Assembly: GCA_964504535.1 (NCBI GenBank) | Contig: CAZDED010000009.1 | Location: 1-63,289, forward strand | DNA length: 63,289 bases | DNA from: an uncultured Gammaproteobacteria bacterium | GTDB lineage: Bacteria > Patescibacteriota > Microgenomatia > Levybacterales > GWA1-39-11 | Direction: 5' to 3' | Shown here: one piece after another, positions 33,122 to 63,289 of the stretch | Layout of the letters: the number at the start of each line of letters is the position of its first letter | Position numbering within the stretch: position 1 is the first letter of the stretch | Made by a program: the position numbers and the translations under genes | Notes under the pieces: generated by a model | The model's database searches: none | What the model saw: the letters and a program-made list of their open reading frames with translations, nothing else | Told to the model about the DNA's origin: nothing

Positions 33122-33193
33122 GGCCCGTTCTTCTATCGGTTAGGAAACAGGGTTTTCATCCCTGTAGGGTGGGTTCGACTCCCACACGGGTCA
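33122..33193 (+). tRNA. tRNA-Glu (anticodon TTC)
   Basis: GGCCCGT-TC-TTCT-ATCGGTTA-GGAA-A-CAGGG-TTTTCAT-CCCTG-TAGG-GTGGG-TTCGACT-CCCAC-ACGGGTC-A. A TATAAT box lies at 33094-33099. Confidence 0.8.
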
Positions 33194-34707
33194 CTAAATG
33201 GGACGACACCGTCGTCAAATGAACGAATACATTGATATAGCGGGCTAATCTGGCGGTTCGAAATGCCCGGATAGCTCCACACCAGTTTTTTAGCAAATAT
33301 CGAACCAAGAAGGATGCGTTTTATAGTTAGGTTGGAATTGAGGTACGTTTGACCTAAATTTTCAAAATAGATTTTTACAGTTTCCACAATTTCTTCAAGA
33401 TTATATTGCTGAATTAGCATTCCGCTCCTATTCATCTGACAGGAGGCAATCTTATCTTCTATGACAGCATTTTGTTCTCTGAATATTTGGTCTGAATAAG
33501 TTCCGCTTAGATTTTTCTCAATTAACGCTTGTCGTAAAGCATAAAGTTTTGTGATTTCTACCTCTGCCATTTCTTTCCTCTTTTGAATATTAGAAAGCCT
33601 TTTCATATATTCCCTTCGAAGAACGGAGATAAATAGAGCTAAACACTTTTCGGTTGGTGTTATTTCTTGTAATGTACCAACTAAAGTTTGTTCCAATTTT
33701 TCAATCGGTACAGATGGAGCACCACACCTCTCTCGACAAAAATAATACCCATACCTACAACTTCTACCCTTACTCCATGCGCCTGTAAAAACTGCCCCGC
33801 ATTTGCCGCAGTTAATTATTCTTCGTAAGGGAAAGTCTGTATTATCTTTATTCTTTCTGGCTAGTGGGACAGCAATATTCGTGTTTCTTCCGTCAAGAAT
33901 AGATTGAACCTTATAAAATTGTTCTTCGGTAACCATCGGCGGATGTTGACCCTTAACTTCTTCCGGATGTGCACTAGAAGTTAGAATCCCCATGTAAAAC
34001 TTATTCTTAAAAATCCTTTGCACAACGCTTTTTCCAAGAGGATATCTCTTTCCCTTATAAGTTTGGTACAACCCCCAATAATTCATTATGTTAACAATTT
34101 CCCTTAAGGACTTGCTGCCAGTTGTCATCAAGTCCCATGCTTCTTTTACTTTGTTAAAGGCTTGAGGGTCTTTTATCACATATCCGTTCTGGTTTAGGTA
34201 TCCTAAAGGAACATAACCTGTATGAAGGCCTGATAAAAACCGCGCACGCATACCATTTCTTGTTCTTTCCGATCTTACGTCATTATCAAGCTGTGCAAAC
34301 CCGGCAAGCATAGTCTCAACAAGCTTTTCCGTAGGGCTGTTTCCGGTAGGCTCTGTAGCAGAAATTAACGTAATTTCACATTCTGCTAACTTTTTTCTTA
34401 TAGCTAGATAATCAGATGTTTGACGGGAAATTCTGTCTAATCGGTATATAAAAACAGCGCTTAAATTCCTTTTGTTTCTCCTGCAATACTCAAGCATTTC
34501 AATAAGTATTGGCCGTCCAAGAATAGTTTTTGCGGATTTTCCTTCTTCACGAAACACTTCTACAATCTCAAAACCCTTGCGCATCGCCTCTTTCCTACAT
34601 AGCTCTTCTTGAGTTCCAAGAGAGAAGTTGTCAACCTGTTCTTCGGTTGAGACACGAAGATAAATGACTGCTTTTTTTGGCTTTACGTTCTCTGTATATA
34701 TACCCAT
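33133..34707 (-). CDS. Large serine recombinase (resolvase catalytic domain plus recombinase domain plus zinc ribbon)
   Basis: 524 aa. KAVIYLRVSTEEQ carries the catalytic Ser, followed by ...VFIYRLDRISR, and the Cys cluster CGKCGAVF...CRERCG. The last 61 nt of the ORF are antisense to tRNA-Glu. Confidence 0.9.
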   Translation of the reverse strand: MGIYTENVKPKKAVIYLRVSTEEQVDNFSLGTQEELCRKEAMRKGFEIVEVFREEGKSAKTILGRPILIEMLEYCRRNKRNLSAVFIYRLDRISRQTSDYLAIRKKLAECEITLISATEPTGNSPTEKLVETMLAGFAQLDNDVRSERTRNGMRARFLSGLHTGYVPLGYLNQNGYVIKDPQAFNKVKEAWDLMTTGSKSLREIVNIMNYWGLYQTYKGKRYPLGKSVVQRIFKNKFYMGILTSSAHPEEVKGQHPPMVTEEQFYKVQSILDGRNTNIAVPLARKNKDNTDFPLRRIINCGKCGAVFTGAWSKGRSCRYGYYFCRERCGAPSVPIEKLEQTLVGTLQEITPTEKCLALFISVLRREYMKRLSNIQKRKEMAEVEITKLYALRQALIEKNLSGTYSDQIFREQNAVIEDKIASCQMNRSGMLIQQYNLEEIVETVKIYFENLGQTYLNSNLTIKRILLGSIFAKKLVWSYPGISNRQISPLYQCIRSFDDGVVPFSDPCGSRTHPTGMKTLFPNR

Positions 34708-34709
34708 AT

Positions 34710-35093
34710 TTATAATGTTTGTAATATTTCACCTAATGTTTTTCCTCCGTAAGTTTGTCGTTCGAAAATATCAAGCCAACTACAAGCCAAAAACTCAAAA
34801 TCCGATACTAGATTCGTAAGTTGTTCGTCTGTAAATTCCCTTGATGCTTCTCCAATAACTCCTCTTGCTCGCTCCGACTTTGTAAGTTCCTGTGATGTAG
34901 GGAAAATAGCACTTAAAGCTTTTTCTATGCTTGTCGTTTGTATTGGAGTAGGCAAGTAGTTTTCTTTTGCATAATCAGTAACATTCTGAGAATTCAATTC
35001 AGGACTATCAAGCTTAAATAGTGGTAATTCTGAGGTTTGCATACTATCAATATATGGATAGTATATATCCAAATAGGGATAGTTGTCAAGCAC
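34710..35093 (-). CDS. Hypothetical protein (127 aa) directly upstream of the recombinase
   Basis: The ORF ends 3 nt before the recombinase start. I recognise no motif. Confidence 0.45.
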   Translation of the reverse strand: MLDNYPYLDIYYPYIDSMQTSELPLFKLDSPELNSQNVTDYAKENYLPTPIQTTSIEKALSAIFPTSQELTKSERARGVIGEASREFTDEQLTNLVSDFEFLACSWLDIFERQTYGGKTLGEILQTL

Positions 35094-35154
35094 TAACTTG
35101 CTTCAAAATTATGTGATATACTACGCTTAATCTGCTCATCTGCCCATTAAGGGT

Positions 35155-37797
35155 ATGATGGATTATCAGTCATTAAGAGCTGACCATATAATCGGAGCAT
35201 TTATCTCCAATCTTCCCCATATAGTTGGGAATTTTAACAGGGGTTTTCAGGTAGTCATTTTCATCTTTCTTTCGGTGTTCTTAGTTTTTCTTCTTGGATT
35301 TTCCTTACTAATGCTTATAAGGCTCTATTTCTTCGTAAGATCTTTAAAGAAAGAAGAAGTATACTTGGAATTAACCCCTCCTTCAATAACCGAACAAAGC
35401 GCATATTCTACAGAACAGCTTTTCCTACTTATCCATACCTTAGGGAACCAAAAATCTTTTCTTGAAAGATTATTAAATTTAAAACCGAGATTTTCACTAG
35501 AAATTGTATCAACAAAGAGCGAAGGTATCCGTTATTTACTAAAGACTAATAAGAAAGAGGCGGGAGCACTTAAGAAAAGCATCCTTTCATATCTACCCCA
35601 GGTAAAGATACAAAAAGTTAATGATTATTTAATAATGGAACCGAGTTTTAGTAAGTTTAAAATTGTCGAGTTTAAATTATCAAATCATTTTGCCTACCCC
35701 CTAAAGAGCCAACAAACACTAGGGTTGCACGATCCGATTTCATATATAACGGGCATGATGACAAAGCTTGAAAAGGATGAGTTGGTAGCCCTTCAGATTG
35801 TTTTAACTTCAACCAAAAATAAAAAGATAAATGAAATTTCAAACTTAATCCTTCGAAATTACGATGTCCTAGATTTTCTTAAAAATGACAAGGACTTTGG
35901 TCTGCTAACTCCGATTATTGCTCTTGGTAAAATTCTTATTTCCTTTGTATTTATTGTTTTCTCAATTCCATTTTGGATTCTTTCAAATATAACAACGAAC
36001 GGAAAAGCACCTTTCCCAAAATTACCGTTTCAAAAACCCGGAACTCTTTATATACCCTCAATCCACGAGCAGGAAATTATAAGTTCCGTTAAATCAAAAA
36101 TAGAACAAGGTTTATTTGAAACCTCAATTAGGCTTTTACTCGCAATTAATGACAGAGATGATGCAAAAGAGCGTATAAGAGGCTTTAAATCATCATTCGC
36201 ATCCTTTAATAGTCCTGAACATCAAAGTGTAGTATCGGTTAAGGACTCAAGGTTTAAATTCTTAAAACAGTACCGACTTTTTATTTTTAAGAATAGATTA
36301 TTATCCTTTTTTAACAAATCCATCTTCTCGGTTTCCGAGATTTCAAGCATTTACCACTTCCCTTATACCTCAAACACAAAAACAGAAAATATTGTCAAAA
36401 CCTACAGCAAAGAGCTTCCGGCACCACTTTCTTTAAAAGGTGAACGGGAATTGGATGTTGTGTTTGCCAAAAACACTTACGGTGGAACATCTACTCTAAT
36501 CGGTTTGTCGGAAGAGGAAAGGGAAAAGCACATGTATATTATCGGAGCAACAGGATCGGGAAAAACAACCATGATTACGTCTATGGTTTCCCAAGACATT
36601 AAAAACGGAAAAGGGGTGGCTATAATTGATCCTCATGGAGATCTGGCAGAAACACTTTTAACTTGTATTCCGGACTCTAGAATTGACGATCTGATTTATG
36701 TTAATCCTGACGACTTAAAGTATCCTATCGGAATAAATCTACTTGAAATTACACCCGGACTTGATGAGGATGATTTGCTTAGGGAAAAGGAATTTATTAC
36801 AGAAAGTGTAATTTCTCTTTTTAGAAAAGTTTTCTCGGAATCAATGGCAGGTCATGCTCACAGAATTGAATACATTTTAAGAAACACTATCCAAACCGCA
36901 TTAACTCTTGAGAACCCAACCCTTTTTACAATTTATGAGCTATTAAATAACCCTCCTTTTCAAAAGCAGGCAACAAAGAATTTGGAGGATGAAAATTTAA
37001 AAAACTTTTGGAAGTATGAGTATGGGAAAGCCGGTGACTACCAGAAAGTTAAGATGATTTCACCGGTTGCAGCACGTATCGGAAGATTTTTATTCTCCCC
37101 TTCTGCAAAGCGAATGCTTGAGCAGAAAAAATCTACCATTAATTTCGATGAGATTCTAGAAAAACAGAAAATACTAATTTGCAATCTTGCAAAAGGAAAA
37201 TTAGGTGAGGACACATCGGAAGTTTTAGGAATTATGGTTATCGCAAAGCTACAGCTTGCCTCCCTCAGACGCGCCAGGATAAGCGAAAAGAAGAGAAAAC
37301 CGTTCTATCTATACGTTGATGAGTTTCAAAACTTTGCAACTGTATCGTTTATCCAAATGTTATCGGAAGCAAGAAAATACAAGACATATTTAGTCATGGC
37401 CGAACAGTCAACTTCCCAGCAAAAAGATAAAAATTTGGTAAATGTTATTTTGGCAAATGTGGGAACAGTTGTTTCTTTCAGAAGTGCAAACCCCGATGAT
37501 GAAAGACTTATGCTTCCGCAGTTTTCCCCTTTTATTGAGAAGGGGGACATTGCAAATTTACCCCGTTATAACTTTTATATAAAGATTTCTGCAGTTAATC
37601 CCGAAGAATCCTTCTCTGGAACAACAATGCCTGTTGAAATTACTTTTAGTAAAGACCGTATTGAGAAGTTGATTCAAGCCTCACGTTTACAAAACGCAAT
37701 AGTATATAAGAAGCCGATTGTTAAATCTTACCACAACGTAAAAACCGCGACTGATACGCAAAATAATATCAATCCCAAAGACGTTTCTGTACTTTAA
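35155..37797 (+). CDS. Type IV secretion coupling-protein-like ATPase (VirD4/TraD/TraG, DUF87-type P-loop) with an N-terminal TM region
   Basis: 880 aa with Walker A (IIGATGSGKTTMI), AIIDPHGDLAE, Walker B (FYLYVDEFQNF) and ARKYKTYLVMAEQS. Confidence 0.75.
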   Translation: MMDYQSLRADHIIGAFISNLPHIVGNFNRGFQVVIFIFLSVFLVFLLGFSLLMLIRLYFFVRSLKKEEVYLELTPPSITEQSAYSTEQLFLLIHTLGNQKSFLERLLNLKPRFSLEIVSTKSEGIRYLLKTNKKEAGALKKSILSYLPQVKIQKVNDYLIMEPSFSKFKIVEFKLSNHFAYPLKSQQTLGLHDPISYITGMMTKLEKDELVALQIVLTSTKNKKINEISNLILRNYDVLDFLKNDKDFGLLTPIIALGKILISFVFIVFSIPFWILSNITTNGKAPFPKLPFQKPGTLYIPSIHEQEIISSVKSKIEQGLFETSIRLLLAINDRDDAKERIRGFKSSFASFNSPEHQSVVSVKDSRFKFLKQYRLFIFKNRLLSFFNKSIFSVSEISSIYHFPYTSNTKTENIVKTYSKELPAPLSLKGERELDVVFAKNTYGGTSTLIGLSEEEREKHMYIIGATGSGKTTMITSMVSQDIKNGKGVAIIDPHGDLAETLLTCIPDSRIDDLIYVNPDDLKYPIGINLLEITPGLDEDDLLREKEFITESVISLFRKVFSESMAGHAHRIEYILRNTIQTALTLENPTLFTIYELLNNPPFQKQATKNLEDENLKNFWKYEYGKAGDYQKVKMISPVAARIGRFLFSPSAKRMLEQKKSTINFDEILEKQKILICNLAKGKLGEDTSEVLGIMVIAKLQLASLRRARISEKKRKPFYLYVDEFQNFATVSFIQMLSEARKYKTYLVMAEQSTSQQKDKNLVNVILANVGTVVSFRSANPDDERLMLPQFSPFIEKGDIANLPRYNFYIKISAVNPEESFSGTTMPVEITFSKDRIEKLIQASRLQNAIVYKKPIVKSYHNVKTATDTQNNINPKDVSVL

Positions 37798-37924: not shown

Positions 37925-38695
37925 ATGATAACTCCTACAGAATTAAAACTAAAAGATAAACAAACAGAGATACTCCTTAACCTATATCGCTTTCGCTTCT
38001 TAAACAGAAACCAAATCCAACGACTACTTAACCACAAGAAACACAACAGAATAATTAAATGGCTAAACGAACTAACAAAAGAAAAATATGTTATTCAGGA
38101 ATTCGAAAGAAAAATAGGAGCCATACCTTCTGTGTATTGTCTTGGAACGAAAGCAAGAAAAGAACTTAAAAAGAGAAAGGAAATTAACGAAAAATTACTT
38201 GAACGGGTATACCAAGAAAAAAACTCTTCTCTGGAATTCAAAGCTCACAATATGGCAATAGCCGATATCTATCTATCGTTAATCGATTTAACAAAAAAAC
38301 ATGATGCAAAACTAACCTTCTATACAGCAGTTGATTTAACAGATATGAAATATCTTGTTCTGCCACATCCGGACGCTTACTTTTCTATTCAACAAAAAGA
38401 AATGACAAAGAGATATTTTCTTGATGTTTTTAATCTCAATGCATCTGAAAAATGGTTATTCAAAAGAGTAAAGCAATATTTTAATTACTACGAAGAAGAG
38501 TATTGGCAAGACCACAACAAAAACCCATTTCCTGAAATTATTCTTGTTTGCTTTGATGAAAAAACCAAAAAGAATCTTATAAAAAATATAAAGAAAGGTT
38601 TGGAGGATGAAGAAAACCTCAGCTTTTCCTTAACAACTATGAAGGATATTAAAAACAAGGGAATAAGTAAAGAAATTTTGCTTAAGGTTGATTAA
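37925..38695 (+). CDS. Replication-relaxation family protein
   Basis: 256 aa. The N-terminus LKDKQTEILLNLYRFRFLNRNQIQRLL and ...PHPDAYF are typical of this family. Confidence 0.65.
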   Translation: MITPTELKLKDKQTEILLNLYRFRFLNRNQIQRLLNHKKHNRIIKWLNELTKEKYVIQEFERKIGAIPSVYCLGTKARKELKKRKEINEKLLERVYQEKNSSLEFKAHNMAIADIYLSLIDLTKKHDAKLTFYTAVDLTDMKYLVLPHPDAYFSIQQKEMTKRYFLDVFNLNASEKWLFKRVKQYFNYYEEEYWQDHNKNPFPEIILVCFDEKTKKNLIKNIKKGLEDEENLSFSLTTMKDIKNKGISKEILLKVD

Positions 38696-38951: not shown

Positions 38952-39257
38952 CTAAACTTGTTCGTGTAGTTTTTTAACTTCCGTTAATAAACAGGGAGTA
39001 AAATACAAATCTCTCTCAACCCCTGCACCATATGGTCCCTCTATCTCTTTTAGTTCTTTTAATGAAAAATAGCCGAGTTCCGGAAAATCACCCACAACGT
39101 AGCCGAAAAAAGTATCTTTTCCGTCGAACTCTAACGCATACCATGTCCATTTGGTGAACGGTAGAAAGAATTTACATAAAACTTTTGGGTCTTTCTTGTT
39201 TTCGACAGAGTAAAGAGGAGGTAGTTTCTTCTCCACATAAGAAGGCATAAGCATCAT
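38952..39257 (-). CDS. DUF2958-family protein
   Basis: KFFLPFTKWTWYALEFDGKDTFFGYVVGDFPELGYFSLKELKEI matches the DUF2958 core. The start is placed at ATG 39257 (MMLMPS...) behind AAAGGAGGTGAAAAGTAT; the track start is 39338. Confidence 0.65.
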   Translation of the reverse strand: MMLMPSYVEKKLPPLYSVENKKDPKVLCKFFLPFTKWTWYALEFDGKDTFFGYVVGDFPELGYFSLKELKEIEGPYGAGVERDLYFTPCLLTEVKKLHEQV

Positions 39258-39392
39258 ATACTTTTCACCTCCTTTCTTTTCACTTTTTAGAATTTGTTTT
39301 CCTGAAAGCATGCTCATGCTTTCAGATATGAAGAGCACTTAAGCGGGGTGAATTTTGCAAGGGCGAATGTAATGAGTGCACTTTACCCTTGT

Positions 39393-39432: not shown

Positions 39433-39918
39433 TTATCTACTTGCCTTTATTCTTTTTGTTATATAGTCCGTTTGTTTTCTATAGGAACACAAGAACATAA
39501 CCAAAAGTAAACTAATTAATATATAAGGACTCCAGCTTTCAAGTAGTTGAAGTTTTAATTCAATAAATTCATAAAATTTTAACAAAAACAATAGTACCAA
39601 CATTGAACAAAATGTTCGATACATATTATTCGTCTCGGAAAGAAGATCAATCATTGAATCTTTTTTTGAAGCAAAAATAAATTCCTTGTAGTCTGTGAAC
39701 TTTAAGAACGAAACCTTTCTCAATAGTGGTTCAATGACTAACGACCCAAATCTACTAATCACTAATCCTATGAAATAGTATGTAAAAGCCGCAATAATAA
39801 GATTGTCCTGCACTAAGGAAAAGATTGTAAACTTATCGAGAACAATTATAAATATTGTGCCGGGTAACAAATAGTTAAAAAGATTGTATGATGATATCTT
39901 GTCTAAAATTTCCTTCAT
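39433..39918 (-). CDS. Four-TM membrane protein, hypothetical
   Basis: 161 aa. It starts 3 nt after the stop of the upstream MBL gene. Confidence 0.5.
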   Translation of the reverse strand: MKEILDKISSYNLFNYLLPGTIFIIVLDKFTIFSLVQDNLIIAAFTYYFIGLVISRFGSLVIEPLLRKVSFLKFTDYKEFIFASKKDSMIDLLSETNNMYRTFCSMLVLLFLLKFYEFIELKLQLLESWSPYILISLLLVMFLCSYRKQTDYITKRIKASR

Positions 39919-39921
39919 GAT

Positions 39922-40791
39922 TCAATCTATTAAAAAGCTTCGGTAGGTTCTACTTCCATCAAGGTCAAAACTTACCCATAAATGTCCATCGCTACGCGTA
40001 GTAAGGACTTTTCTTAGTGGTCCAATGCCATTAAGACTTACTCCCGTGGTTACATGTTGTGCATATCTACTTGCCATACCACCCTGTGTATCATACATAA
40101 TGTCTCTATCTGAAATGACTATACAATCTACATTAGAGCAATGCAAGAAAATATTTTCATGATAGCCGTTATCGTGACCATGATGTGATGCAACATAAAC
40201 ATTTGTGGAATTAAGATGACTCTGTATTTCTGGATTCTGTAAAAGTTTCTCCCAGGAAGGTGTTTTTTCAAGATCTCCACCAATACAGATTTTTGATCCG
40301 CCATATTCAACAAATACTAATTGACTCAAATGATTTGTGTTGATTTCGTATGAATTGAGATCGCTCCTATTTAGCGAGTATATATATTTATTATACGGTG
40401 GCATATGATAGGGAACCGGCGTGGTATAAGTGTCTTTAAGGTAACAAATATGCCTCAATGCCTCGGTAATTTCGGGCTTAATACTTTTTAATTCGCTTGA
40501 TGAAATATTTTGAGCCAATGAAACGGTTTGAATATGCATTTTTTGTCTAATACTGGGAAGCCCAAAAAAATGATCATGGTCATAATTTGTGATCGTAAGA
40601 TTTCCGAGCACATGCCTTGTTCCATCATGATGGATTAGATTTTGTTTTACTAAAAAATCAATTGGATCATAATTTTCTCCGGAAGCACAATCAACAAGCA
40701 TCCCGTATTCTGGATGACTTCGTGGATAAAAAAAGATGCATTGTGCTTGTCCAACATTGAATATCAAAATCTCTAAATTATTGCTGTTCAT
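39922..40791 (-). CDS. MBL-fold metallo-hydrolase (divergent)
   Basis: 289 aa; ITNYDHDHFFGL (HxHxDH-like) and VASHHGHDNGYH. Confidence 0.65.
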   Translation of the reverse strand: MNSNNLEILIFNVGQAQCIFFYPRSHPEYGMLVDCASGENYDPIDFLVKQNLIHHDGTRHVLGNLTITNYDHDHFFGLPSIRQKMHIQTVSLAQNISSSELKSIKPEITEALRHICYLKDTYTTPVPYHMPPYNKYIYSLNRSDLNSYEINTNHLSQLVFVEYGGSKICIGGDLEKTPSWEKLLQNPEIQSHLNSTNVYVASHHGHDNGYHENIFLHCSNVDCIVISDRDIMYDTQGGMASRYAQHVTTGVSLNGIGPLRKVLTTRSDGHLWVSFDLDGSRTYRSFLID

Positions 40792-40808
40792 ATAAATTCC
40801 ATTTCACG

Positions 40809-41867
40809 TTAATCTTCCACTTTGTCGTGAAATGGTTCTTCTTGTGCCACAGACCAATCCGGTCGTTCAGGAGCCTCGTGATGATGATGCAAAATATTTT
40901 TTCTATTAACATATACTCTTGTTCCTTGTTTCTTGAGCGCATTTGTAATTTTTTTTGCAGGATGCTTTGGATTGTCTCCAGAAGCAGAAATGAATGCGGT
41001 TTCAGCTTTAATTCTTGATAGCACCTTACTACTAAGATTTCTCTTACTTCCATGGTGGGGTACGTCTAAAAACCGAAGGTCGTTAAGTATTAGTCCTTGG
41101 CTGTCAGCATAATCCGATGCAAGTGTTAATCCAGTTTTTCCTGCATCTCCGGTAAATAAAAGCTTGTAACCATCGATGTTAAACAAAATAATTGTACTAG
41201 TATTATTTTCGGGCGAAGTTGTGTCTTCGTCGTTATTTATTAAGTCTATACCAGTATTATCCTCCAGCCAATTAATAGCCTCTTCAGCCATTTTTTGAAT
41301 CGGTGCAAATAATTGACTGAGTGTCTCAATCGGAGAAGGAGTTGACCGAAATAACGGTATTTGAGTTTCATAGTATTCCTTTGAGGGGCCTAAAATGTGC
41401 ATTTTCCCACTGTATCCAGTTGTCCCTTGAAAAGGTTCAATAATTGTAATTCCTTTGCTGGTTGCAAGTTCCTCTAGCTCGTTCGCATTTTGGATCGATT
41501 TCTCAAGTCTTTCCTTCAATCCAGAAAAGGTAATATTTTTATTTTTAAAAAAGTTTTTTATTTCTTGGGAATGTTCCCACGGTTTATGCATAAGTAAGGC
41601 ACCAACCCTTAACTTATCTAATACGATAAGGAGCCCAGAAATATGGTCGATATCTGGATGTGTTGAAATTACTAGGTCAACATAGTCAGTATTGTAATAT
41701 TGGCTAATATGTTGAACAATTAGTTCACCTGCCTCGCTAAAACCCCCATCGATTACAATGATAAATTGCTCGTCGCGCGTCCCGGTTAAATTACCAAAAC
41801 GCAATATAATAGCGTCACCACTTTTTTTACCATTACCAACCGGTATGTAATCTACTTCATATGCCAT
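40809..41867 (-). CDS. MBL-fold metallo-hydrolase, ComEC/Rec2 beta-lactamase-domain-like
   Basis: 352 aa; GDAIILRF...IVIDGG, VISTHPDIDHISGL, LLFTGDAG, LDVPHHGSKRN. Confidence 0.7.
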   Translation of the reverse strand: MAYEVDYIPVGNGKKSGDAIILRFGNLTGTRDEQFIIVIDGGFSEAGELIVQHISQYYNTDYVDLVISTHPDIDHISGLLIVLDKLRVGALLMHKPWEHSQEIKNFFKNKNITFSGLKERLEKSIQNANELEELATSKGITIIEPFQGTTGYSGKMHILGPSKEYYETQIPLFRSTPSPIETLSQLFAPIQKMAEEAINWLEDNTGIDLINNDEDTTSPENNTSTIILFNIDGYKLLFTGDAGKTGLTLASDYADSQGLILNDLRFLDVPHHGSKRNLSSKVLSRIKAETAFISASGDNPKHPAKKITNALKKQGTRVYVNRKNILHHHHEAPERPDWSVAQEEPFHDKVED

Positions 41868-41869
41868 AT

Positions 41870-42109: not shown

Positions 42110-42111
42110 TT

Positions 42112-42729: not shown

Positions 42730-42770
42730 GCGTACTATTATACGCGAAATAGCGTAATTATGCAAGGGGT

Positions 42771-54727: not shown

Positions 54728-54736
54728 ATAACGTAC

Positions 54737-55456: not shown

Positions 55457-56148
55457 ATATTTTCTTTAATCTCTGCGATGTTTTTCTCTCTTTCCTTACA
55501 ATTGGCACATTCATGGCATGAGGATATCTTCCCGTCGTTGTATTGGGCATTCCAACACGAAACCGTTAAATCAAGCATTCCTGCATCGGAAAGTCTTTTT
55601 AACAAGGCTTTTTTCGTGAGAGATCTTATTGGGAGGAACACCTCCATAGGCCGCAAGAAGGATTTTGATAGGATGTCTTCAACTCCTTTGTGGTGAAAAT
55701 AATCGTTATCTCCAAATACAAAATTGTCGTCTAACATATAACCTATTGCTATACCGTCCCCATCGATTTGCTCGGCATATATTCCTGCAATTACCATAAA
55801 AAGAGTATTTCTTCCCGGAACCCAAGCATCGGAATCGTCTTTGGACTCTTCACCAAGTAGTTTACTTCTGGTTAATTTCTTAAGAAGGTCTGTTTCGATA
55901 ACTTGCGTTGGTTGAAATCCAAGTTGGACCGGTACGTTTTCTACCAGTTGTCTTTCTGCCGTAGCAGAAGATTGTCCGTAATCAATAAAAAGAGGGTACA
56001 CATCTTTTCCTTGTTCTTGAAGAATTAATCCGGCTACCGTACTATCAACACCACCCGAATACATTAAAACGACTCTTCCGGTATTTTCCCTCTGAAGACC
56101 TCTCAGCAGATCTTCGTTCATTTTTGTTTTTATAGGTTCTAATTCCAT
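55453..56148 (-). CDS. queC: QueC-family PP-loop ATPase (7-cyano-7-deazaguanine synthase-like, divergent middle region)
   Basis: VLMYSGGVDST PP-loop, FIDYGQ, VPGRNTLF and the 4-Cys zinc motif SCWNAQ...SSCHECANCKER. Confidence 0.75.
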   Translation of the reverse strand: MELEPIKTKMNEDLLRGLQRENTGRVVLMYSGGVDSTVAGLILQEQGKDVYPLFIDYGQSSATAERQLVENVPVQLGFQPTQVIETDLLKKLTRSKLLGEESKDDSDAWVPGRNTLFMVIAGIYAEQIDGDGIAIGYMLDDNFVFGDNDYFHHKGVEDILSKSFLRPMEVFLPIRSLTKKALLKRLSDAGMLDLTVSCWNAQYNDGKISSCHECANCKEREKNIAEIKENI

Positions 56149-56151
56149 TTA

Positions 56152-57168
56152 TTAATTTAGTTGTATTAATGAAAAAAACTTTTCAAGATTTAATTTCTTT
56201 ATTCTCTCAGATGATAAATCATTATAAATACTATAACGTAAATGATGCATTTTAACATAACCTTGCATTTCATTCAAAGCTTTTAATACTATTGGTCTGT
56301 TTAGTCCTTCTAAAACATATTTAATACCAACAGAATCCATGAATGATTTTATTTCTATAATGTCCTGTCCCTGAATAAATGCTGTTAACAAAACGCTAAA
56401 AGCTATCATTTCTCCATGCAAAAATTTTTTTAATTTATTTTCCATAGCATATGTAAAGAAGTGTTCCCCTCCCTCTTCAGGCCTACTATTTCCATAAAAA
56501 TTACATAGCTGGACTTCCATAGCGAGAAACTGCACAAGGTAAATTAACCCCTTTTTTGAAACTTTTCTAATTTCACTTGATTCCGTGAGTAATCCTCTAA
56601 ATATTGATTCTGCCATTAAGGCTACGCTTTCGGAATATTTTTCATCTTCTGCTGCCTTTTTTCTATTGTTTGCATATTTCCAATCAAACAACCCGGTATA
56701 TATTGAAAGAACGTCACCGCAACCGCTTAGATGAAATCTTTTTGGACTTTTTTTAAGTAAATTATAATCTAGCAAAACCAAATCTGCTTTTTTTGATGGG
56801 AAATAGGTGACACACCCCTTATCTCTTAATCCGGTGCAATCAACTAGAAAAGCATCTGTTGAAATAATAGTTGGAACACATATTATTTCAAGGTTCCAAT
56901 TATAGGCGATAAAACGGCCCAAATCACATACTCTTCCACCACCCAATGCATAAATAACCTTTCCTACATGTTTTTCTTTTACTAATTTTTTAGCATATTC
57001 TTTTTCTGCGGATTTAATATAAATTGTTTGAACAATATTTAGATTTTTTATTATATTTTTGCTTTTCTTTAATGATGCAGGGCTTGTTATTAGAATTACG
57101 GGACGGGAATCAAATAGTGTATCTATACTTCCCCATTTTATTTTCGGTAGATTTGAAATATATCTCAT
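56152..57168 (-). CDS. Glycerol-1-phosphate dehydrogenase (AraM/EgsA)-like enzyme of the DHQS/Fe-ADH superfamily
   Basis: YALGGGRVCDLGRFIA (GGGxxxD), VPTIISTDAF and SGCGDVLSIYTGLFDWKYA (GxGDxxxxxxxxxDW). Confidence 0.6.
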   Translation of the reverse strand: MRYISNLPKIKWGSIDTLFDSRPVILITSPASLKKSKNIIKNLNIVQTIYIKSAEKEYAKKLVKEKHVGKVIYALGGGRVCDLGRFIAYNWNLEIICVPTIISTDAFLVDCTGLRDKGCVTYFPSKKADLVLLDYNLLKKSPKRFHLSGCGDVLSIYTGLFDWKYANNRKKAAEDEKYSESVALMAESIFRGLLTESSEIRKVSKKGLIYLVQFLAMEVQLCNFYGNSRPEEGGEHFFTYAMENKLKKFLHGEMIAFSVLLTAFIQGQDIIEIKSFMDSVGIKYVLEGLNRPIVLKALNEMQGYVKMHHLRYSIYNDLSSERIKKLNLEKFFSLIQLN

Positions 57169-57170
57169 GA

Positions 57171-58703
57171 TTAATTAGTAGATAGAATAAAAGGATGGAA
57201 TAGGTCCATGTTTCTGAAAGCCAAATGAAAATATAATTCGGATGCAAATTTATCTATAACTTTTGATGGGTCTGGATATCTTGAAGGGTCGAGTGAATGT
57301 TGAAAATTTGCAATCATTTGTTGCAAGGTTTCTCTTTTAGATTTTTCTCCTTCATTTGTGCGTTTTAAGAAAACCTGCAGGTTGGCATTCATAGTTTCAT
57401 TACCATCTGCAAGCTCAGCTTCTAATTCACCCAATAAAGGCAACATATCGTTAAAACCTGCAGCAAATTCAGGATGAGTAAATGCCTGATACCCATAAAA
57501 GCTAAGCAACTCAGGGGGAACGTCCAATAGCCTTCCTTTTCTCTTAAACTCATGATAAAGAGGAGTATTCGGTTGCATTTCAAGATTGGCAATAATGTAT
57601 CCACTTGAGCCCAGATCCTTAAGAAGCTTTACTTCTTCGCGAATGTTTTTTCTGTTCTGCCAGTCCAATCCGACTATGTATGTTGAAACAACATTAATTC
57701 CAGCATCTTGCAATCGTGCATTAACAGCTTTCAAGTCAACTCCTTCATTTTTTTTATATCCTTTAATTAAAGATTCGACTCCAATATTTACGGTACTGAG
57801 CCTTAACGCACCTTTTGTTAACTCATCTATATCATACTTATCAATTACCTTTGAAGATGTTGTGCTGACCAGTTCACATTGAAATGGCAGATCCCTACAA
57901 AGTCTAAGAACGTCTTTCCACAATTTCACATTGCCCATCCCTTGAGGTTCTGCAATACTTACGGTAAAGGTCTCACTTTCGGGAGCAATCGTGTCATGTG
58001 CAGAAATTATTGCATCTTTAATCTCGTCAGCGGCAAATGGCGCCCTATATTCCTGTCCGTACTGTGCTGTTGAAGGGCAGAAATCACACCCATACATACA
58101 TCCCAAACTACTGACCAAAAGACCATAACTTCCTCTCTTTGTAATTCCGTTAAAACGGGTTTCGGTGTCTGAACGAATTGTTGCGACTTTTAATGGATCA
58201 TTGGTAGGTTGGCCAATTATTTTTCTTAAATCGGTAACCTGATCTCCTCTTAATCTATAGTCAGATAAATTTACCGACTCTTCAAGAAGAGCGCCAACAG
58301 AAGAGGCAATTACCTTAACCTCCGGATGTTTATCTCTTACGAATTGTGCAATTTCTCTAAATGTACTGTATCCGCTTAAATATGTTGAAATAACAATATG
58401 TCCATACCTACCGGTATCAAGCTCTTCCCTTGCTCTTTCAAGAGTTATTGGTTCTGGAATTACCGTATTTGGAAGGTTTATATTTGCGCTCATCCATTCA
58501 CCGGGAGCATTTTGTGGATACCAATCAAATGAAAACGTGTCTTCTCTTCCTTGAGTTTTGGTTTGTTGAATATAATCGGCAAGAAATTGAGAATCATAAT
58601 ATTTATCAAATCCTTTTCTTTGTAATCCTTCTAATTTTTCAGTGGGATTTGTTGTGTTGTATGACGGATCTTGAGCTATAGTAAATAGTACTTCTTTACT
58701 CAT
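57171..58703 (-). CDS. Radical SAM enzyme with a roughly 190-aa N-terminal Rossmann-like (B12-binding-type) domain
   Basis: CxxxCxxC cluster (LGCMYGCDFCPS) after an N-terminal domain (HIVISTYLSGYSTFREIAQFVRDKHPEVKVIASS). The class-B assignment rests on architecture only. Confidence 0.75.
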   Translation of the reverse strand: MSKEVLFTIAQDPSYNTTNPTEKLEGLQRKGFDKYYDSQFLADYIQQTKTQGREDTFSFDWYPQNAPGEWMSANINLPNTVIPEPITLERAREELDTGRYGHIVISTYLSGYSTFREIAQFVRDKHPEVKVIASSVGALLEESVNLSDYRLRGDQVTDLRKIIGQPTNDPLKVATIRSDTETRFNGITKRGSYGLLVSSLGCMYGCDFCPSTAQYGQEYRAPFAADEIKDAIISAHDTIAPESETFTVSIAEPQGMGNVKLWKDVLRLCRDLPFQCELVSTTSSKVIDKYDIDELTKGALRLSTVNIGVESLIKGYKKNEGVDLKAVNARLQDAGINVVSTYIVGLDWQNRKNIREEVKLLKDLGSSGYIIANLEMQPNTPLYHEFKRKGRLLDVPPELLSFYGYQAFTHPEFAAGFNDMLPLLGELEAELADGNETMNANLQVFLKRTNEGEKSKRETLQQMIANFQHSLDPSRYPDPSKVIDKFASELYFHLAFRNMDLFHPFILSTN

Positions 58704-59697
58704 AATTAGTTTTAATACCTCGTACTAAGCTTTTATTTAAAGAGTTTATGAAATTATTAACGGAATCGGGTAGGTGTTCTAGATTATATCCACCCTCAAA
58801 AACCACACAACTTGGAATATTAAGTCCTCCAATTTTATAACCCAAATAGCCATAATCATCTGCGGTAAGTCCTGCTAACGGTGTTCTTCCAGGTGGATGA
58901 TCTTCCTCATGTCCATCGAATCCCGCGCTTACTACTAATACATCTGGATTATAACTATCTATAGTTTTAATTGCTCTTCCAAATTTTTCTTTATATCTAT
59001 CTGTAGAAACACCGATATCAACAGGGATATTAACAATTAAGCCTTTTCCCAGTCCCTCACCAATCTCTTCTGGAAAACCTGTGAATGGAAATGCTATGCT
59101 AGGGTCTGCATGGACAGAAACAAACAGCGCCTCTCCAGAATTAAAAAAAATATCCTGTGTCCCATCTCCATGGTGAATATCAAAATCTAATACTGCAACT
59201 TTAGCACCAGCATTTCGTAGGTTACGAGTAGCTAATGCTGCATTATTAATAAAACAAAAACCATGATAAAAATCATGCCCCGCGTGATGTCCAGGGGGAC
59301 GCGAGAGTGAAAAAACCAATTTAGTTTTCTTTTGAATTAGTAGCTCTGAAGAATGAATACTATTACTTGCAGCTAGAACTGCCTGATCATAGGTACCCTT
59401 TAATATTGGTGTTGAATACGCGGTGTCACTACAAAACTTAGTAAACGCTTCATCCCCCACTTTAAGTAACTCGCTGTATCTTTGAAGCAACTCAATCATT
59501 TCAGGTGAGTGGGTCTCTTTTATTAAGGGGTGTTCATATATATTCGGTGCTTCAACTTTTATGTTAAGCCCGCTCCCAAGAAGAGCATTTTTTACCAATT
59601 CTACCCTTTCAGCAATTTCACATGGATCATCTTTACGCGTTTTGTGTTGCGCATGTTTTTCATCGTAAACTAAAAATACATCATGCTCTATTTCCAT
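58696..59697 (-). CDS. Histone-deacetylase-family amidohydrolase (acetylpolyamine/acetoin-utilisation type)
   Basis: RPPGHHAG, DFDIHHGDGTQDIF and SAGFDGHEEDHP. Confidence 0.85.
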   Translation of the reverse strand: MEIEHDVFLVYDEKHAQHKTRKDDPCEIAERVELVKNALLGSGLNIKVEAPNIYEHPLIKETHSPEMIELLQRYSELLKVGDEAFTKFCSDTAYSTPILKGTYDQAVLAASNSIHSSELLIQKKTKLVFSLSRPPGHHAGHDFYHGFCFINNAALATRNLRNAGAKVAVLDFDIHHGDGTQDIFFNSGEALFVSVHADPSIAFPFTGFPEEIGEGLGKGLIVNIPVDIGVSTDRYKEKFGRAIKTIDSYNPDVLVVSAGFDGHEEDHPPGRTPLAGLTADDYGYLGYKIGGLNIPSCVVFEGGYNLEHLPDSVNNFINSLNKSLVRGIKTNYE

Positions 59698-60887
59698 AAA
59701 TCTGTATTAACTTGTCCTGTTTCAAATAACTTGCCCATTAATTCATTTGATGGAATTGCTCGAGAAGCATTTTCTAGAAAAGTCCTAATATCATCCAAAT
59801 ACATACTTGTTTGTAATCGGGAATCTCGTTGTCGAATTGTCACAGAATCATTTTTTACACCCTCTTCATCTGCTGTAAATACATATGGCACACCGATACC
59901 ATCTGCCTTTCTATATCTACTACCAATAGAGCCCGTTTCTAGAATTGGTGTTCGAATACCGTATTCTTTTAATAGTTCACTTACGAGTATGGACATATTG
60001 TGCAACTCAGGTGTTTTCTTAAGGGGAAAAACCATTCCCTGCACGGGAGCCAATCTTTCGGGTAAATGTAGAACGACTCTATCTCCAATTTTCTCCAATG
60101 CTTGTCCCAATGCTATATAGAAAGGTCTGTCGCTTGAAAAAGAAATCTCAAAAACCTCGGGATATTTACCGTTCACTTCCAGTTTTGTTCCTGTCGCAAG
60201 ACTATGTCTTTTAAAATCGTAGGATGAGCGGTATTGAATTCCGAGCAATTCCATTTCATTTCCGTCCTCGTCCGGTACATATAAACCAAATGCTTTGTTG
60301 GCATAAAATGGTTTATCAGATTCAATCTTTTCTCTAAAATTCATACTACCTTCTTTAATACCAACACTATTCATTAATACATAAGATAAATGCTGTAGGT
60401 AATCGACTGTAGCGGCAACATCTACATCTTTTGTCTGCATAAATATATGTCCTTCGTGTCCTGTATATTGTCTTGTTCTCGTTTGCCATTCAGTTTGTCT
60501 ATCATTAGGCAATACGATTCCCGACTGAAAAACTCTAAATGGTAAATTTCCCCTATAATATTCGAGCAGTCTTCTAAAAAGAGGGTATATGGTTGTAGCG
60601 AGTTCACCTCTACCCATCAGCGCTTGACCGTCTGAAGTTTGTGTTTGGAACATCTCGTCATTAAATTTCTGTAAATGTCCACTTGCTTCCCAGGCTTTTC
60701 GGGGATAAAGGACCGGTGTCTCAATCTCATCAAAGCCTTCATCGATAAAAACTTCCCTGAATTGTTGTTCCATATTGGTTTTAAGGGCTTTACCCATAGG
60801 ACCATATGTCATAAAACCAGCCACGCCGTATGGACTGTGCTCCGGCCCCCATAAAAATCCGTTTGAAACTAAATGTTCTTTTAACAT
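59688..60887 (-). CDS. Class II glycyl-tRNA-synthetase-like paralogue (catalytic core plus anticodon-binding-like domain), divergent motif 2
   Basis: GlyRS-type N-terminus (GFLWGPEHSPYGVAGFMTYGPMGKALKTNMEQQF), motif-3-like PEVFEISFSSDRPFY, and a class IIa C-terminal domain (APVQGMVFPL...GSIGSRYRKADGIGVPYVFTAD...VTIRQRDS). Confidence 0.75.
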   Translation of the reverse strand: MLKEHLVSNGFLWGPEHSPYGVAGFMTYGPMGKALKTNMEQQFREVFIDEGFDEIETPVLYPRKAWEASGHLQKFNDEMFQTQTSDGQALMGRGELATTIYPLFRRLLEYYRGNLPFRVFQSGIVLPNDRQTEWQTRTRQYTGHEGHIFMQTKDVDVAATVDYLQHLSYVLMNSVGIKEGSMNFREKIESDKPFYANKAFGLYVPDEDGNEMELLGIQYRSSYDFKRHSLATGTKLEVNGKYPEVFEISFSSDRPFYIALGQALEKIGDRVVLHLPERLAPVQGMVFPLKKTPELHNMSILVSELLKEYGIRTPILETGSIGSRYRKADGIGVPYVFTADEEGVKNDSVTIRQRDSRLQTSMYLDDIRTFLENASRAIPSNELMGKLFETGQVNTDLWK

Positions 60888-60890
60888 AAT

Positions 60891-61634
60891 CTATATTCCT
60901 CTTTTGTCTCCCCAAAGCAATACATGCAAACGAGGGGTCAATCGCCATCCTCGCTCCTTTACTCCTTCAACAACTTCTAGTGCATGTGTTTTAATATCAT
61001 CATCTGTTGTCCCTTCAGGCATGATAATAATTTTTGACGGATCAAGACTGCAATCTTCAACCAATTGAGAAATTTCATCCAGATCTCTTTCGCTTTTTAC
61101 AACAAATTTAAAAGTTGTATTGGGTAGCTCATTAAACTGAGATAGCACTTCCGGTTTATATCTCCTGTTAAGCGCATTACCTGAATTTTCCAGCTTAGGA
61201 GAAACATTAAATTGACATTTATCTGCCAGTGTTTGAGTAGGAGGAATAGTTCCGTTTGTTTCAATTTCAATATCCCAGCTCGGTATCAAATCGACAAATT
61301 TACTAATTCTTTCTTGTTGTATCAATGGTTCACCACCTGTTATGACTAATCTTTTTACAGGGTATCTCTCGATTTCTGAAAGTGTTTTTTGGTAATCCCA
61401 GTTCTCGGCATCTTGCCAAAATTCTTTGGACTTTCTATCCCAGGTATATTTCGTATCGCACCAACCACATTGTAAATTACAAAAATTAAGGCGAAGAAAA
61501 ACTGCCGGCTTTCCTATGCTTTGACCCTCGCCTTGGATTGTAAAAAACACACCATCTCCGGATACCTTAAACTCATCAGCATTCATTCTCATCGATTCAC
61601 GCTCTGATATTGTTGGTGTATATATTTCTGTCAT
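60891..61634 (-). CDS. queE: 7-carboxy-7-deazaguanine synthase (radical SAM)
   Basis: FTIQGEGQSIGKPAVFLRLNFCNLQCGWCDTKYTW. The start at ATG 61634 forms an ATGA overlap with the queD stop; the track start is 61691. Confidence 0.85.
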   Translation of the reverse strand: MTEIYTPTISERESMRMNADEFKVSGDGVFFTIQGEGQSIGKPAVFLRLNFCNLQCGWCDTKYTWDRKSKEFWQDAENWDYQKTLSEIERYPVKRLVITGGEPLIQQERISKFVDLIPSWDIEIETNGTIPPTQTLADKCQFNVSPKLENSGNALNRRYKPEVLSQFNELPNTTFKFVVKSERDLDEISQLVEDCSLDPSKIIIMPEGTTDDDIKTHALEVVEGVKERGWRLTPRLHVLLWGDKRGI

Positions 61635-61990
61635 TCTTTGCTTTCTTTGCCTGGTCCTTGAAAGGCAACAAAACTGCTTGGAGTTTCCCAAAGCTTAATT
61701 TCGTACAGTGGCATATCTCCTTCTAACTGCTCCCATATCCACATAGCTATATTTTCTGCTGTCGGTTGCTTAATAATTTTATTAATAAAAGCGTGGTCAA
61801 GTTTTTGGAGCACCTTTTTATTAACAGAATTTTTTATTTCGGTAAAATCCATGACCATTCCGTTTTTTTGGACAACGCCTTTTAAAATAACTTGTAGTTT
61901 ATAGGTATGCCCATGTAAATTAGCGCAAGGACCATTATAGTTACGTAACCTGTGGGCAGAATCGAAAGTAAACTGTTTAGCAATAAACAT
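61631..61990 (-). CDS. queD: 6-carboxy-5,6,7,8-tetrahydropterin synthase
   Basis: 119 aa; FTFDSAHRL...CANLHGHTYKLQV (PTPS/QueD signature). Confidence 0.88.
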   Translation of the reverse strand: MFIAKQFTFDSAHRLRNYNGPCANLHGHTYKLQVILKGVVQKNGMVMDFTEIKNSVNKKVLQKLDHAFINKIIKQPTAENIAMWIWEQLEGDMPLYEIKLWETPSSFVAFQGPGKESKE

Positions 61991-61992
61991 AA

Positions 61993-62778
61993 TTAATTGT
62001 GTTTAACATCGTCAATACTTGTATATCGAGCGTAGGCATTATGGTTATGTATTGATTCGAAACTTTCACACTCTACAGTGAACGAAAGAATGTTTTTGTT
62101 CTTTTTTATCGAAAGAGCAGTATCTCTAACCGCATCTTCAACAAATTTAGGATTTTCATAGGATTTTTCGGTTACATATTTTTCATCAGGCCTTTTTAGT
62201 ACAGGGTATATCTCACAACTACCGTTTTTTTCAATCGTTTTTATTAATTCATCTATCAATAAGTCCCCTTTTAGAAGTGCGTCTACCGTTATAATCGATC
62301 TTTGGTTGTGAGCATTAAATTTACTTATTGCTTTACTGCACGGGCACAAAAGCATAACAGGAACTTTCACTATTATCCTTTGTTCCGAATCTCCGGAATT
62401 AACCCTTGAATATATTTTGCATTCATAATCAACGAAACTACTTTTTCTGGAAACAGGAGCCTCTTTTTTCAGGAAATATATAAAAGAAATTTCAAGATAA
62501 GCATTGTCTGCCTGTAATTCCTTTTTTGCTTCACTCGCTATTGATTTCAATTTTTCAAACGTTAGAATATTTTCCCGATTCCTAAAAAGTATTTCTACAA
62601 ACCTACTCATATGATGTCCTTTTAATGAATGGCGTAAGTCTGCAAAGAAATTAACAGATGCCGTAACCTGTTGGGTATCTTTTTTGTGGGGGATTAACAA
62701 AGGAAGCGATATCTTGGTAATACCAACCCTATCTAGTCGAAGTCCTCTTTTATCTTTTAGTTTTTGTATGTCTTTCAT
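61993..62778 (-). CDS. folE2: GTP cyclohydrolase I type 2 (FolE2/MptA family)
   Basis: 261 aa; GHHMSRF, LLCPCSK and NHNAYA motifs. Confidence 0.85.
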   Translation of the reverse strand: MKDIQKLKDKRGLRLDRVGITKISLPLLIPHKKDTQQVTASVNFFADLRHSLKGHHMSRFVEILFRNRENILTFEKLKSIASEAKKELQADNAYLEISFIYFLKKEAPVSRKSSFVDYECKIYSRVNSGDSEQRIIVKVPVMLLCPCSKAISKFNAHNQRSIITVDALLKGDLLIDELIKTIEKNGSCEIYPVLKRPDEKYVTEKSYENPKFVEDAVRDTALSIKKNKNILSFTVECESFESIHNHNAYARYTSIDDVKHN

Positions 62779-62965: not shown

Positions 62966-62994
62966 TTGACTTCACTGAGACGGTCTGATATATA
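62966..62994 (+). promoter_or_regulatory. Sigma-70-type promoter (TTGACT, 17-nt spacer, TATATA) facing the pilin gene
   Basis: Direct reading; it is divergent from the operon promoter. Confidence 0.5.
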
Positions 62995-63027
62995 TTGATA
63001 CAATAATTTAATTGTTCGGTTTTATGG

Positions 63028-63053
63028 AAACTGCTCTCCGGGGCAGTTTTTTT
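63028..63053 (+). terminator. Intrinsic terminator (AAACTGC-tctccggg-GCAGTTT followed by TTTT) between that promoter and the pilin gene
   Basis: A perfect 7-bp stem followed by a T-run, about 30 nt downstream of the -10 box and 34 nt upstream of the pilin ATG. Confidence 0.55.
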
Positions 63054-63086
63054 GTATTTACCGCTTTTTAGAAAGGGGGTGAAGGC

Positions 63087-63289
63087 ATGAAAAAACTAAT
63101 AACATTACAATCAATTATTTTAACTTCATTAATAGTCGCTACTCCTGTGTTTGCACAAGCTGCAGATGTTACAAAAGTCCAAAGCTTTATAGAAAATATT
63201 ATCCAGATTCTAACGACCATGGCAGGATTACTAGCGTCCGGCTTTTTTGTATGGGGTGGAGTCAGATACATAACATCAAGTGGAAATCC
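63087..63289 (+). CDS. VirB2/TrbC-like type IV secretion pilin (partial; runs off the window)
   Basis: Hand translation gives MKKLITLQSIILTSLIVATPVFAQAADVTKVQSFIENIIQILTTMAGLLASGFFVWGGVRYITSSGN... It has a signal peptide ending AQA and a hydrophobic helix followed by GG-x-x-Y-I-T-S-x-GN, typical of TrbC/VirB2 pilins. The SD is AAAGGGGGTGAAGG. Confidence 0.55.
   Translation, partial: MKKLITLQSIILTSLIVATPVFAQAADVTKVQSFIENIIQILTTMAGLLASGFFVWGGVRYITSSGN

Follow-up and report, generated by a model that had tools for sequence, protein, structure and literature searches.

Integrative conjugative elements (ICEs) of monoderm bacteria that combine an MPF-FATA-type type IV secretion system (T4SS) with a serine integrase, for example those of the Tn5397/Tn1549-like group, carry an integrase at one end, a type IV coupling protein (T4CP), a relaxase, VirB4, PrgI/VirB3, VirB6 and a hydrolase, with cargo placed between the modules. 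Here, we describe an island with the same set of components in contig CAZDED010000009.1 (63,289 bases, hereafter the window), which belongs to a tiny bacterium of the Levybacteria, within the candidate phyla radiation (CPR). The island is very probably an ICE of 37,055 bp, residing at the 3' end of tRNA-Glu(UUC) and integrated by its own large serine recombinase (LSR). It is unlike the Tn5397/Tn1549-like elements in its CPR host, its predicted MOBC relaxase, its VirB2-like pilins, its use of tRNA 3' ends and not protein genes as targets, and an LSR gene that spans attP.

A survey of the T4SSs of Patescibacteria reported 58 MOBC relaxases, and 39 relaxases near a t4cp gene (PMC12102498, Microb Genom 2025). 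The systems of that survey and the one presented here are alike in having a monoderm-type VirB4, PrgI, a TrsD/TraC-like protein, VirB6 and a VirB2-like pilin in CPR hosts. However, the surveyed systems were treated as chromosomal and mostly non-conjugative and no element was delineated, whereas here a second, patchily distributed VirB4 (approximately 41% identical to the conserved one) is part of a bounded, tRNA-integrated unit. Class 8 of the streptococcal integrative mobilisable elements (IMEs) consists of a serine integrase, VirD4 and Rel_PF13814/MobC (Coluzzi et al. 2017, PMC5357655), which is the same compact three-gene mobility module as found here. These IMEs are small, mobilisable only and without a mating pore, whereas the present element has a complete VirB4/VirB6/PrgI/pilin/hydrolase module in addition, as well as 24 kb of cargo; a version of the element with a deletion in one relative (G010) resembles the IME state. 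No ICE delimited in CPR bacteria was found described in the open-access literature.

Extent, junctions and gene content of the element

The window is the complete contig C9 of a 28-contig, 1.27-Mb genome (G000; C-numbers denote its contigs, other G-numbers relatives, and L-numbers loci or metagenome contigs), whose TypA has its nearest named homologues in Candidatus Levybacteria, at 90% identity. The window holds the left 30 kb of the approximately 37-kb element, whose remaining 6,960 bp are on contig C6. The final 55-mers of C9 and C6 are reverse complements, each being the sole partner of the other, and in the joined scaffold, whose coordinates are used below, the open reading frame (ORF) of a VirB2/TrbC pilin runs unbroken across the join. 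Metagenome contigs L027, L028 and L029 span the join contiguously at 98.5-99.99% identity (L028 at 99.9% over 20 kb), as do L037 and L038 at 96.4%, and the closest relative, G009, has the flanks corresponding to C9 and C6 adjacent to each other. Past the element, C6 carries the housekeeping genes for ATP-grasp, SNase, GreA, TypA and CTP synthase. The attachment site, integration and transfer features are the following (lengths in amino acids, aa).

33122-33194, plus strand: tRNA-Glu(TTC), the integration target and B arm of attL (ARAGORN; mature sequence intact and identical in G009)
33188-33194, plus strand: GGGTCAC, the 7 bp that attL and attR have in common and where crossover probably occurs; the right end of the element, at scaffold 70243-70249 (C6:73907-73901), consists of the same 7 bases
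33133-34707, minus strand: LSR (integrase), 524 aa in the integrated form; Pfam Resolvase, Recombinase and Zn_ribbon_recom, all over cut-off, and the catalytic motif YLRVSTEEQ
34710-35093, minus strand: conserved 127-aa protein of no family, directly upstream of the LSR gene; adjoins the LSR also in G039, G010, L023, L024 and L026 (30-52% identity)
35155-37797, plus strand: VirD4-type T4CP, 880 aa; TrwB_AAD_bind and TraG-D_C over the Pfam cut-offs (PF10412, 45.5 bits; PF12696, 22.7 bits)
37925-38695, plus strand: predicted MOBC-family relaxase (Replic_Relax, PF13814), 256 aa; E 8e-14, 52.5 bits against a cut-off of 25.3
63087-63289, plus strand: 5' part of the VirB2/TrbC pilin gene (PF04956; 109 aa when complete), cut by the window end
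C6:80719-79430: VirB6/TrbL-pilin fusion (Pfam; TrbL_4 just under cut-off)
C6:79433-78939: PrgI-like protein (PrgI/VirB3; Pfam, just under cut-off)
C6:78961-78344: TraC-like protein, 205 aa (PF26593)
C6:78387-76546: VirB4, 613 aa (P-loop_TraG, 78.7 bits; AAA_10, 58 bits; Walker motifs)
C6:76549-75920: M23 peptidase, a wall hydrolase (Pfam)
Within C6:75905-74671: 384-aa ORF of no known family, followed by a helix-turn-helix (HTH) gene
C6:74443-73976: PLD-family nuclease, with attR following at C6:73901

The element occupies scaffold positions 33195-70249, since the divergence points on the left, an alignment of five right ends and the switches between flanks all agree. At the left junction (attL, 33194/33195), homology between G000 and G009 ceases at 33194, the final base of the tRNA. 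Six contigs of conspecific origin from other samples, with left flanks 99.6-99.95% identical, also diverge at 33194, where they pass into a different LSR gene, so that the species is polymorphic at this site. Another copy of the element end, L025, which comes from another host, matches at 98.6% identity over 1,722 bp (34909 down to 33188) and then enters a different tRNA gene, tRNA-Glu(CTC), with an unrelated flank; neither this tRNA sequence nor its flank has a match in G000, and the two copies share just GTGACCC at the junction.

At the right junction (attR, scaffold 70249/70250), the ends of G000, G039, G003, G006 and G007, aligned beyond the PLD nuclease, share a conserved motif of approximately 30 nt ending in GGGTCAC (GAGTAC in G039), after which similarity is lost. 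The conserved right terminus, ...GGGGTCAC, lies 6,960 bp past the window end. The terminus ...TTCACTGGGGTCAC is identical in copies with three different flanks (G000; L037/L041/L042; L038/L045/L053), and in contigs of other samples two additional flanks, unrelated to each other, follow the terminus ...GCGGTTCGAAATAAGATTCACTGGGGTCAC, with the match to G000 stopping at scaffold 70250-70254. GGGTCAC is thus found at both junctions and also forms the last bases of the tRNA, and short end repeats of 4-10 bp are present in the related elements of G010 (GGGGTCACAT), G003 (GGGTCACCTA) and G039. The crossover dinucleotide would be AC, because it is the sole dinucleotide common to all end repeats. The predicted attP consists of TTCACTGGGGTCAC joined to TAAATGGGACG (in its longer form, ...TTCACTGGGGTCAC joined to TAAATGGGACGACACC...), and the predicted attB of ...CCCACACGGGTCAC joined to ATAAACGCAGGATTTT....

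Other placements of the ends were considered and set aside. A direct repeat of the 3' half of the tRNA, in the style of tyrosine integrases, was ruled out and a serine-recombinase junction adopted: the 3' part of the tRNA has no copy of at least 12 bp at the right end, or elsewhere in the genome except for its own tRNA-Glu(CTC) on C2. A right boundary at scaffold 72547, where homology to G009 resumes, was dropped in favour of 70249, the position given by the five-element alignment and three independent flanks. An 8-bp palindrome-like match between CCATTTAG at 72502 and CTAAATGG at 33194, considered as P/P' arms, was dropped as a chance match. The locus of G000 corresponding to the tRNA-Arg site of G010 was examined as an empty site, and there synteny is kept on the left as far as the tRNA end but is missing on the right.

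The genes named in the original prediction, which was made from the window alone (tRNA-Glu(TTC), a serine recombinase, a VirD4/TraD-like ATPase, a replication-relaxation protein, DUF2958 and DUF2188 proteins, type I restriction-modification (R-M), an FtsK-gamma protein and a pilin), were all recovered by ARAGORN and Pfam where it had placed them. It had also foreseen an element of at least 30 kb with further T4SS genes past the window edge and a right junction to be found by extending the contig, in agreement with the full length of 37.06 kb, the VirB6, PrgI, VirB4 and M23 genes on C6 and the junction at 70249/70250. A conserved core region, which it had named as one finding that would refute it, is not what relatives show: in G009, Dus, tRNA-Lys, an MscS-like gene and tRNA-Glu are followed within 1.5 kb, taken up by unrelated DNA, by ATP-grasp, SNase, GreA and TypA (identity to G000 98% for TypA and 83% for Dus). 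The impression that the region is AT-rich was correct as well, and both measures of composition shift: the GC content is 0.351 in the element (0.327-0.357 for individual modules) and 0.388 in the remainder of the genome, and none of the 134 genome windows of the same size is as low, and its tetranucleotide distance is 0.168 against 0.092 +/- 0.033, a value reached by 4 of the 134 windows. The strong AGGAGG-type Shine-Dalgarno sequences it had noted are only weakly borne out, with a 5-mer core of this sequence in 5 of 32 element genes versus 1 of 30 flank genes.

With regards to transfer, VirD4 has an N-terminal membrane region and the Walker A motif GATGSGKT, and is 51-76% identical to the proteins at the same position in related elements. 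PF13814 has been equated with the MobC (MOBC) relaxase superfamily of CONJScan (PMC5357655), and the 256-aa protein would accordingly be named a putative MOBC relaxase. The T4SS corresponds to the MPF-FATA (monoderm) type in its VirB4 of the AAA_10/TraG-P-loop kind, its PrgI-like and TraC-like proteins and the lack of any VirB9/10-type gene in the 37 kb. All backbone ORFs of the G000 element are intact. The components by which ICEs are recognised are all found, i.e. a recombinase located at the end, defined junctions together with absence from relatives, a predicted relaxase, and a T4CP with VirB4 and pore genes, and this gene content points to conjugative transfer of the element. The view of the region as a conjugative-type element at tRNA-Glu, as first proposed, is thereby supported, the recombinase being an LSR and not a tyrosine integrase. 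In G000, a 1.2-kb insertion with the 384-aa ORF (C6:75905-74671, scaffold 68245-69479) lies between the M23 gene and the HTH/PLD genes, and it is absent from L037, L038 and L041.

The integrase gene and its attachment site

Integrase genes that contain their own attachment site have been described in two groups. In the myxophage Mx8, attP lies within int, and on integration the gene acquires a new 3' end (PMC6070905), and in the SSV1-type 'suicidal' integrases of archaea, which target tRNAs, the attachment site lies within the integrase gene and integration splits it (PMC8371274). Gene-disrupting recombinases have been stated to be known from archaea only (PMC8371274). The LSR gene presented here likewise spans attP, and is alike to Mx8 and SSV1 in that one respect without being a member of either group: their enzymes are tyrosine recombinases, whereas here an LSR exchanges only its last approximately 29 residues, and its catalytic and DNA-binding domains therefore all remain intact. 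In the open-access literature, we found no serine integrase described with a gene spanning attP.

In the integrated form, the LSR gene sits at the end of the element, abutting attL, and its final 20 codons are the antisense of tRNA-Glu, while the preceding residues are encoded by the element. When the right end is joined in silico to the left end, the LSR ORF becomes 533 aa long and has the tail SDPSESYFEPLLAWLDQLRKLEEEKNVLN, and its stop overlaps the beginning of the PLD nuclease gene. Integration thus exchanges a conserved C-terminal tail for tRNA-antisense codons. The predicted circle-form LSR ORFs stay open in four elements (G000, G010, G003 and G039; for G003 the ends lie on two contigs), and their tails are homologous, with several of the differences being synonymous. 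The conserved circle tail of approximately 29 aa (DPxxxYFEPLLAWLDxLRKL...) is shared with G010, G003, G039 and L024. In L024, a contig from another sample, an LSR 75% identical to that of G000 carries a tail, ...ILASWERLRQVYQEPEEE, that matches the G003 prediction, and is followed by the ORF found at the far right end in G003, G006 and G007 next to the PLD nuclease. Because the LSR, its tail and the far-right ORF are contiguous there, we take L024 to represent a related element in its attP form, circular or tandem. An 'xRT' motif antisense to a T arm also terminates 96 of the 120 nearest homologues of the LSR (56% identity or more), and targeting of tRNA ends with read-through is therefore a trait of the clade. 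The location of the tail at the right end, 37 kb away, also settles a doubt attached to the original prediction, namely that the recombinase might belong to a much smaller element: it belongs to the whole.

The 127-aa protein encoded directly upstream of the LSR gene has no Pfam or PHROG match and is a candidate directionality factor or regulator. In the cycle that we propose, the LSR, perhaps together with this neighbour, would recombine attL with attR within GGGTCAC and release a circle. In the circle, the LSR frame would cross attP and regain its tail of approximately 29 aa, and the gene would be transcribed as one unit with that of the PLD nuclease. The relaxase would then nick oriT, and VirD4 would pass the DNA to a VirB4-powered pore of the monoderm type, with VirB2-like pilins and the M23 hydrolase. 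In the recipient, the circle would be integrated by the LSR after a tRNA with the 3' end GG(G/C)TCAC, leaving the tRNA undamaged.

A broader proposal, which we hold tentatively and consider somewhat doubtful as a whole, is that a large, undescribed clade of CPR serine integrases, all at tRNA 3' ends and all with attP in their own gene, might use the tail swap (with loss of an amphipathic helix and the parting of the LSR from the PLD nuclease) as a sensor of state or a control of directionality, in elements that may be actively conjugating among Patescibacteria with biosynthetic and defence cargo.

Cargo, related elements and signs of movement

Between the left module (LSR, VirD4 and relaxase) and the right module (pore), the element carries approximately 24 kb of cargo, which includes the following features.

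38952-39338, minus strand: DUF2958 protein, semi-conserved backbone or accessory (PF11171; follows the relaxase also in G010, at 86% identity, and in L022, at 66%)
39433-48230, minus strand: cargo 1, eight genes for a membrane protein, two MBL-fold proteins (of which only the 352-aa one matches Pfam), a DUF2188 protein, a LexA-like S24 peptidase, hsdS, hsdM and hsdR (Pfam)
42771-48230: the type I R-M genes hsdS/M/R (Pfam)
48280-51759: cargo 2, an FtsK-gamma winged-helix protein, a small ORF, a GNAT acetyltransferase, an S-adenosylmethionine (SAM) methyltransferase and an RrnaAD (KsgA/Erm-type) methyltransferase (Pfam)
48280-48873: the FtsK-gamma-only protein (Pfam)
51905-62778, minus strand: cargo 3, a 12-gene 7-deazapurine/amino-sugar operon coding for FolE2, QueD, QueE, an aminoacyl-tRNA synthetase-like protein, an HDAC-like protein, a radical SAM protein, an Fe-ADH-like protein, QueC, PIG-L, DegT, GT4 and Gfo/Idh/MocA (Pfam)

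Both the R-M/MBL block and the deazapurine operon are passengers in an exchangeable cargo slot. As had been proposed for the two operons, they lie inside the element boundaries, in the slot where related elements hold other cargo, and between related elements the cargo is entirely different. Cargo 2 adjoins the deazapurine operon in all metagenome copies, and in every contig carrying the operon, from at least 10 samples, it is linked to the T4SS genes of the element; its radical-SAM marker gene was found in 0 of 40 relatives. In near-identical copies, the slot after the FtsK-gamma gene holds either type I R-M (G000, L028 and L029) or a trypsin-like protein together with a PLD/helicase or DrmE_C protein (L027 and L033), a pair that is a candidate for a DISARM-like defence system. 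The replaced part corresponds to window positions 45420-48230, substituted by 18028-20696 in L027 and 10059-12727 in L033, in otherwise 98.5% identical copies. The R-M cassette also appears to move between elements. In L020 (G018:C28), which belongs to a different genus, positions 818-6319 hold type I R-M genes whose HsdM and HsdR are 83-84% identical to those of the window. These genes come immediately behind M23 in a compact related element, the LSR of which is only 21% identical.

The elements of the family share one order, in which the tRNA is followed by the LSR, the 127-aa protein, VirD4 and the predicted MOBC relaxase, then the cargo, and then the pilin, VirB6, PrgI, TraC-like, VirB4 and M23 genes and, at the end, the PLD nuclease. 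This order recurs in G039, which belongs to another family of the order, in G018, L022 and L023, and, with a deletion, in G010. The targets across the family include tRNA-Glu(CTC), tRNA-Arg(CCT) and tRNA-Lys(CTT), and in every case the LSR ORF and the tRNA are convergent, with the ORF extending over the tRNA 3' end. VirB4 of the element type (74-95% identity) is present in 10 of the 40 relatives, and the closest relative, G009, is without the element. A second VirB4 type, with approximately 40% identity, is present in nearly every genome of the order that was searched. The one of G000 is encoded at C4:112415-114121 (41% identical to that of the element) and presumably represents the conserved T4SS of the lineage.

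As near-identical copies sit behind other tRNAs and beside other flanks in other samples, the element has moved recently, reaching different hosts. The same site is also used by others: in L057-L061 and L064, which match window positions 30901-33194, a different LSR gene follows directly after tRNA-Glu(TTC), with its ORF ending at the tRNA end and no read-in, and tRNA-Glu(TTC) is therefore a hotspot common to unrelated LSR elements. In a copy from activated sludge (L039, 10608-12416), VirB4 is split into ORFs of 466 and 121 aa, and some copies are therefore decaying.

The neighbourhood of the site varies between species. Some species of the genus (L007 of G005 and L009 of G006, compared with window positions 32128-33194) have the block of tRNA-Lys, the MscS-like gene and tRNA-Glu inverted with respect to Dus, the right end of the element lies 1.3 kb from Dus in G007, and the interval between Dus and TypA ranges from 4 to 14 kb in relatives with both genes on one contig. 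At the far left end of the window, C9:1-55 is the reverse complement of C8:6823-6877, and C8:1-55 that of C9:51-105; C8:225-1607 codes for another LSR-like protein (25% identity), and a tRNA-Arg(TCT) is located at window positions 216-289. Together with G000:C8:1-6877, the left end of C9 (window positions 1-300) may form a second recombinase-bounded segment of approximately 6.8 kb that is invertible or excisable.

Alternative readings and significance

Several observations weigh against reading the island as an ICE. The MOBC assignment comes from a single Pfam domain, no VirB8-like or adhesin gene was recognised in the element and neither was an oriT or a directionality factor, and the GC shift is modest, at approximately 2 standard deviations. 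G009 is an imperfect empty site, given the unrelated 1.5 kb present there, and G000 has 2.3 kb of DNA between attR and the conserved flank (with ORFs of 437 and 248 aa), which is strain-specific, lies outside the element and has as its sole homologue seen a partial one in G001. For this particular element, neither an excised circle nor an empty attB was seen: a degenerate attB/attP/attL/attR pattern had 0 matches in JGI metagenome contigs, the 10 contexts listed, out of 24 contigs, for a related PLD nuclease variant, checked for an LSR-PLD junction, were all integrated forms, and a protein search with the predicted G000-type circle tail returned only P0001, matched via the shared part, so that no database protein has the tail.

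The absence of a recognised oriT, together with the pilin and pilin-fusion genes, which suggest interaction at the surface, would also suit an integrative mobile island whose T4SS serves host-cell interaction, such as delivery of protein or DNA or attachment, and which spreads by natural transformation or other mobilisation. The survey of Patescibacteria, in which most systems are without relaxases and are probably co-opted (PMC12102498), speaks for such a role and against conjugation. We nevertheless regard this as unlikely: the lineage already has a conserved VirB4 on C4, whereas the T4SS of the element is a second and patchy copy, always accompanied by a T4CP, a predicted MOBC relaxase and an integrase, and the occurrence of all of these with a T4SS in one bounded unit is the signature of a conjugative system. 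A further reading divides the island into adjacent independent parts, namely a small mobilisable element of LSR, VirD4 and MOBC protein, comparable to the streptococcal IME class 8, and a separate island of T4SS or cargo. The left module alone fits this known IME architecture (PMC5357655), the G010 version is without the pilin, VirB6, PrgI and half of VirB4, and in G003 the LSR is 58% but VirB4 95% identical, indicating that modules recombine. Such a composite is nonetheless very improbable, as in four elements the far side of the T4SS module, beside the PLD nuclease, holds both the LSR tail and the attR terminus, making the two ends those of one recombination unit, and as the order of left module, cargo, T4SS and PLD nuclease is kept across families.

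That the region is a fixed and decayed remnant, or core DNA no longer moving, or else a prophage, is scarcely credible. The lack of an observed circle for this copy and the split VirB4 of L039 could be cited in its favour, but the backbone ORFs are intact, copies 98.6-99.99% identical occur in many samples, at another tRNA and beside other flanks, the nearest relative lacks the element, and conspecific strains have a different one in its place. As for a prophage, capsid and portal genes are missing: a PHROG scan of the ORFs without a family revealed no phage structural genes, and its sole 'terminase' match was a weak one, of 28.6 bits, to the TraC-like protein.

For the biology of these bacteria, the ICE reading of the island has several consequences. 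Within the literature searched, a gene that spans attP is an undescribed arrangement for serine integrases, and a serine integrase with predicted attP and attB in conserved tRNA genes is a possible genetic tool for organisms that are hard to manipulate. With the genes for an integrase, a predicted relaxase, a T4CP and a pore all present, delimited to the base and told apart from the conserved T4SS of the lineage, the question of conjugation in CPR/Patescibacteria becomes testable on an actual element. As the operons are mobile passengers, the reading of their distribution changes.

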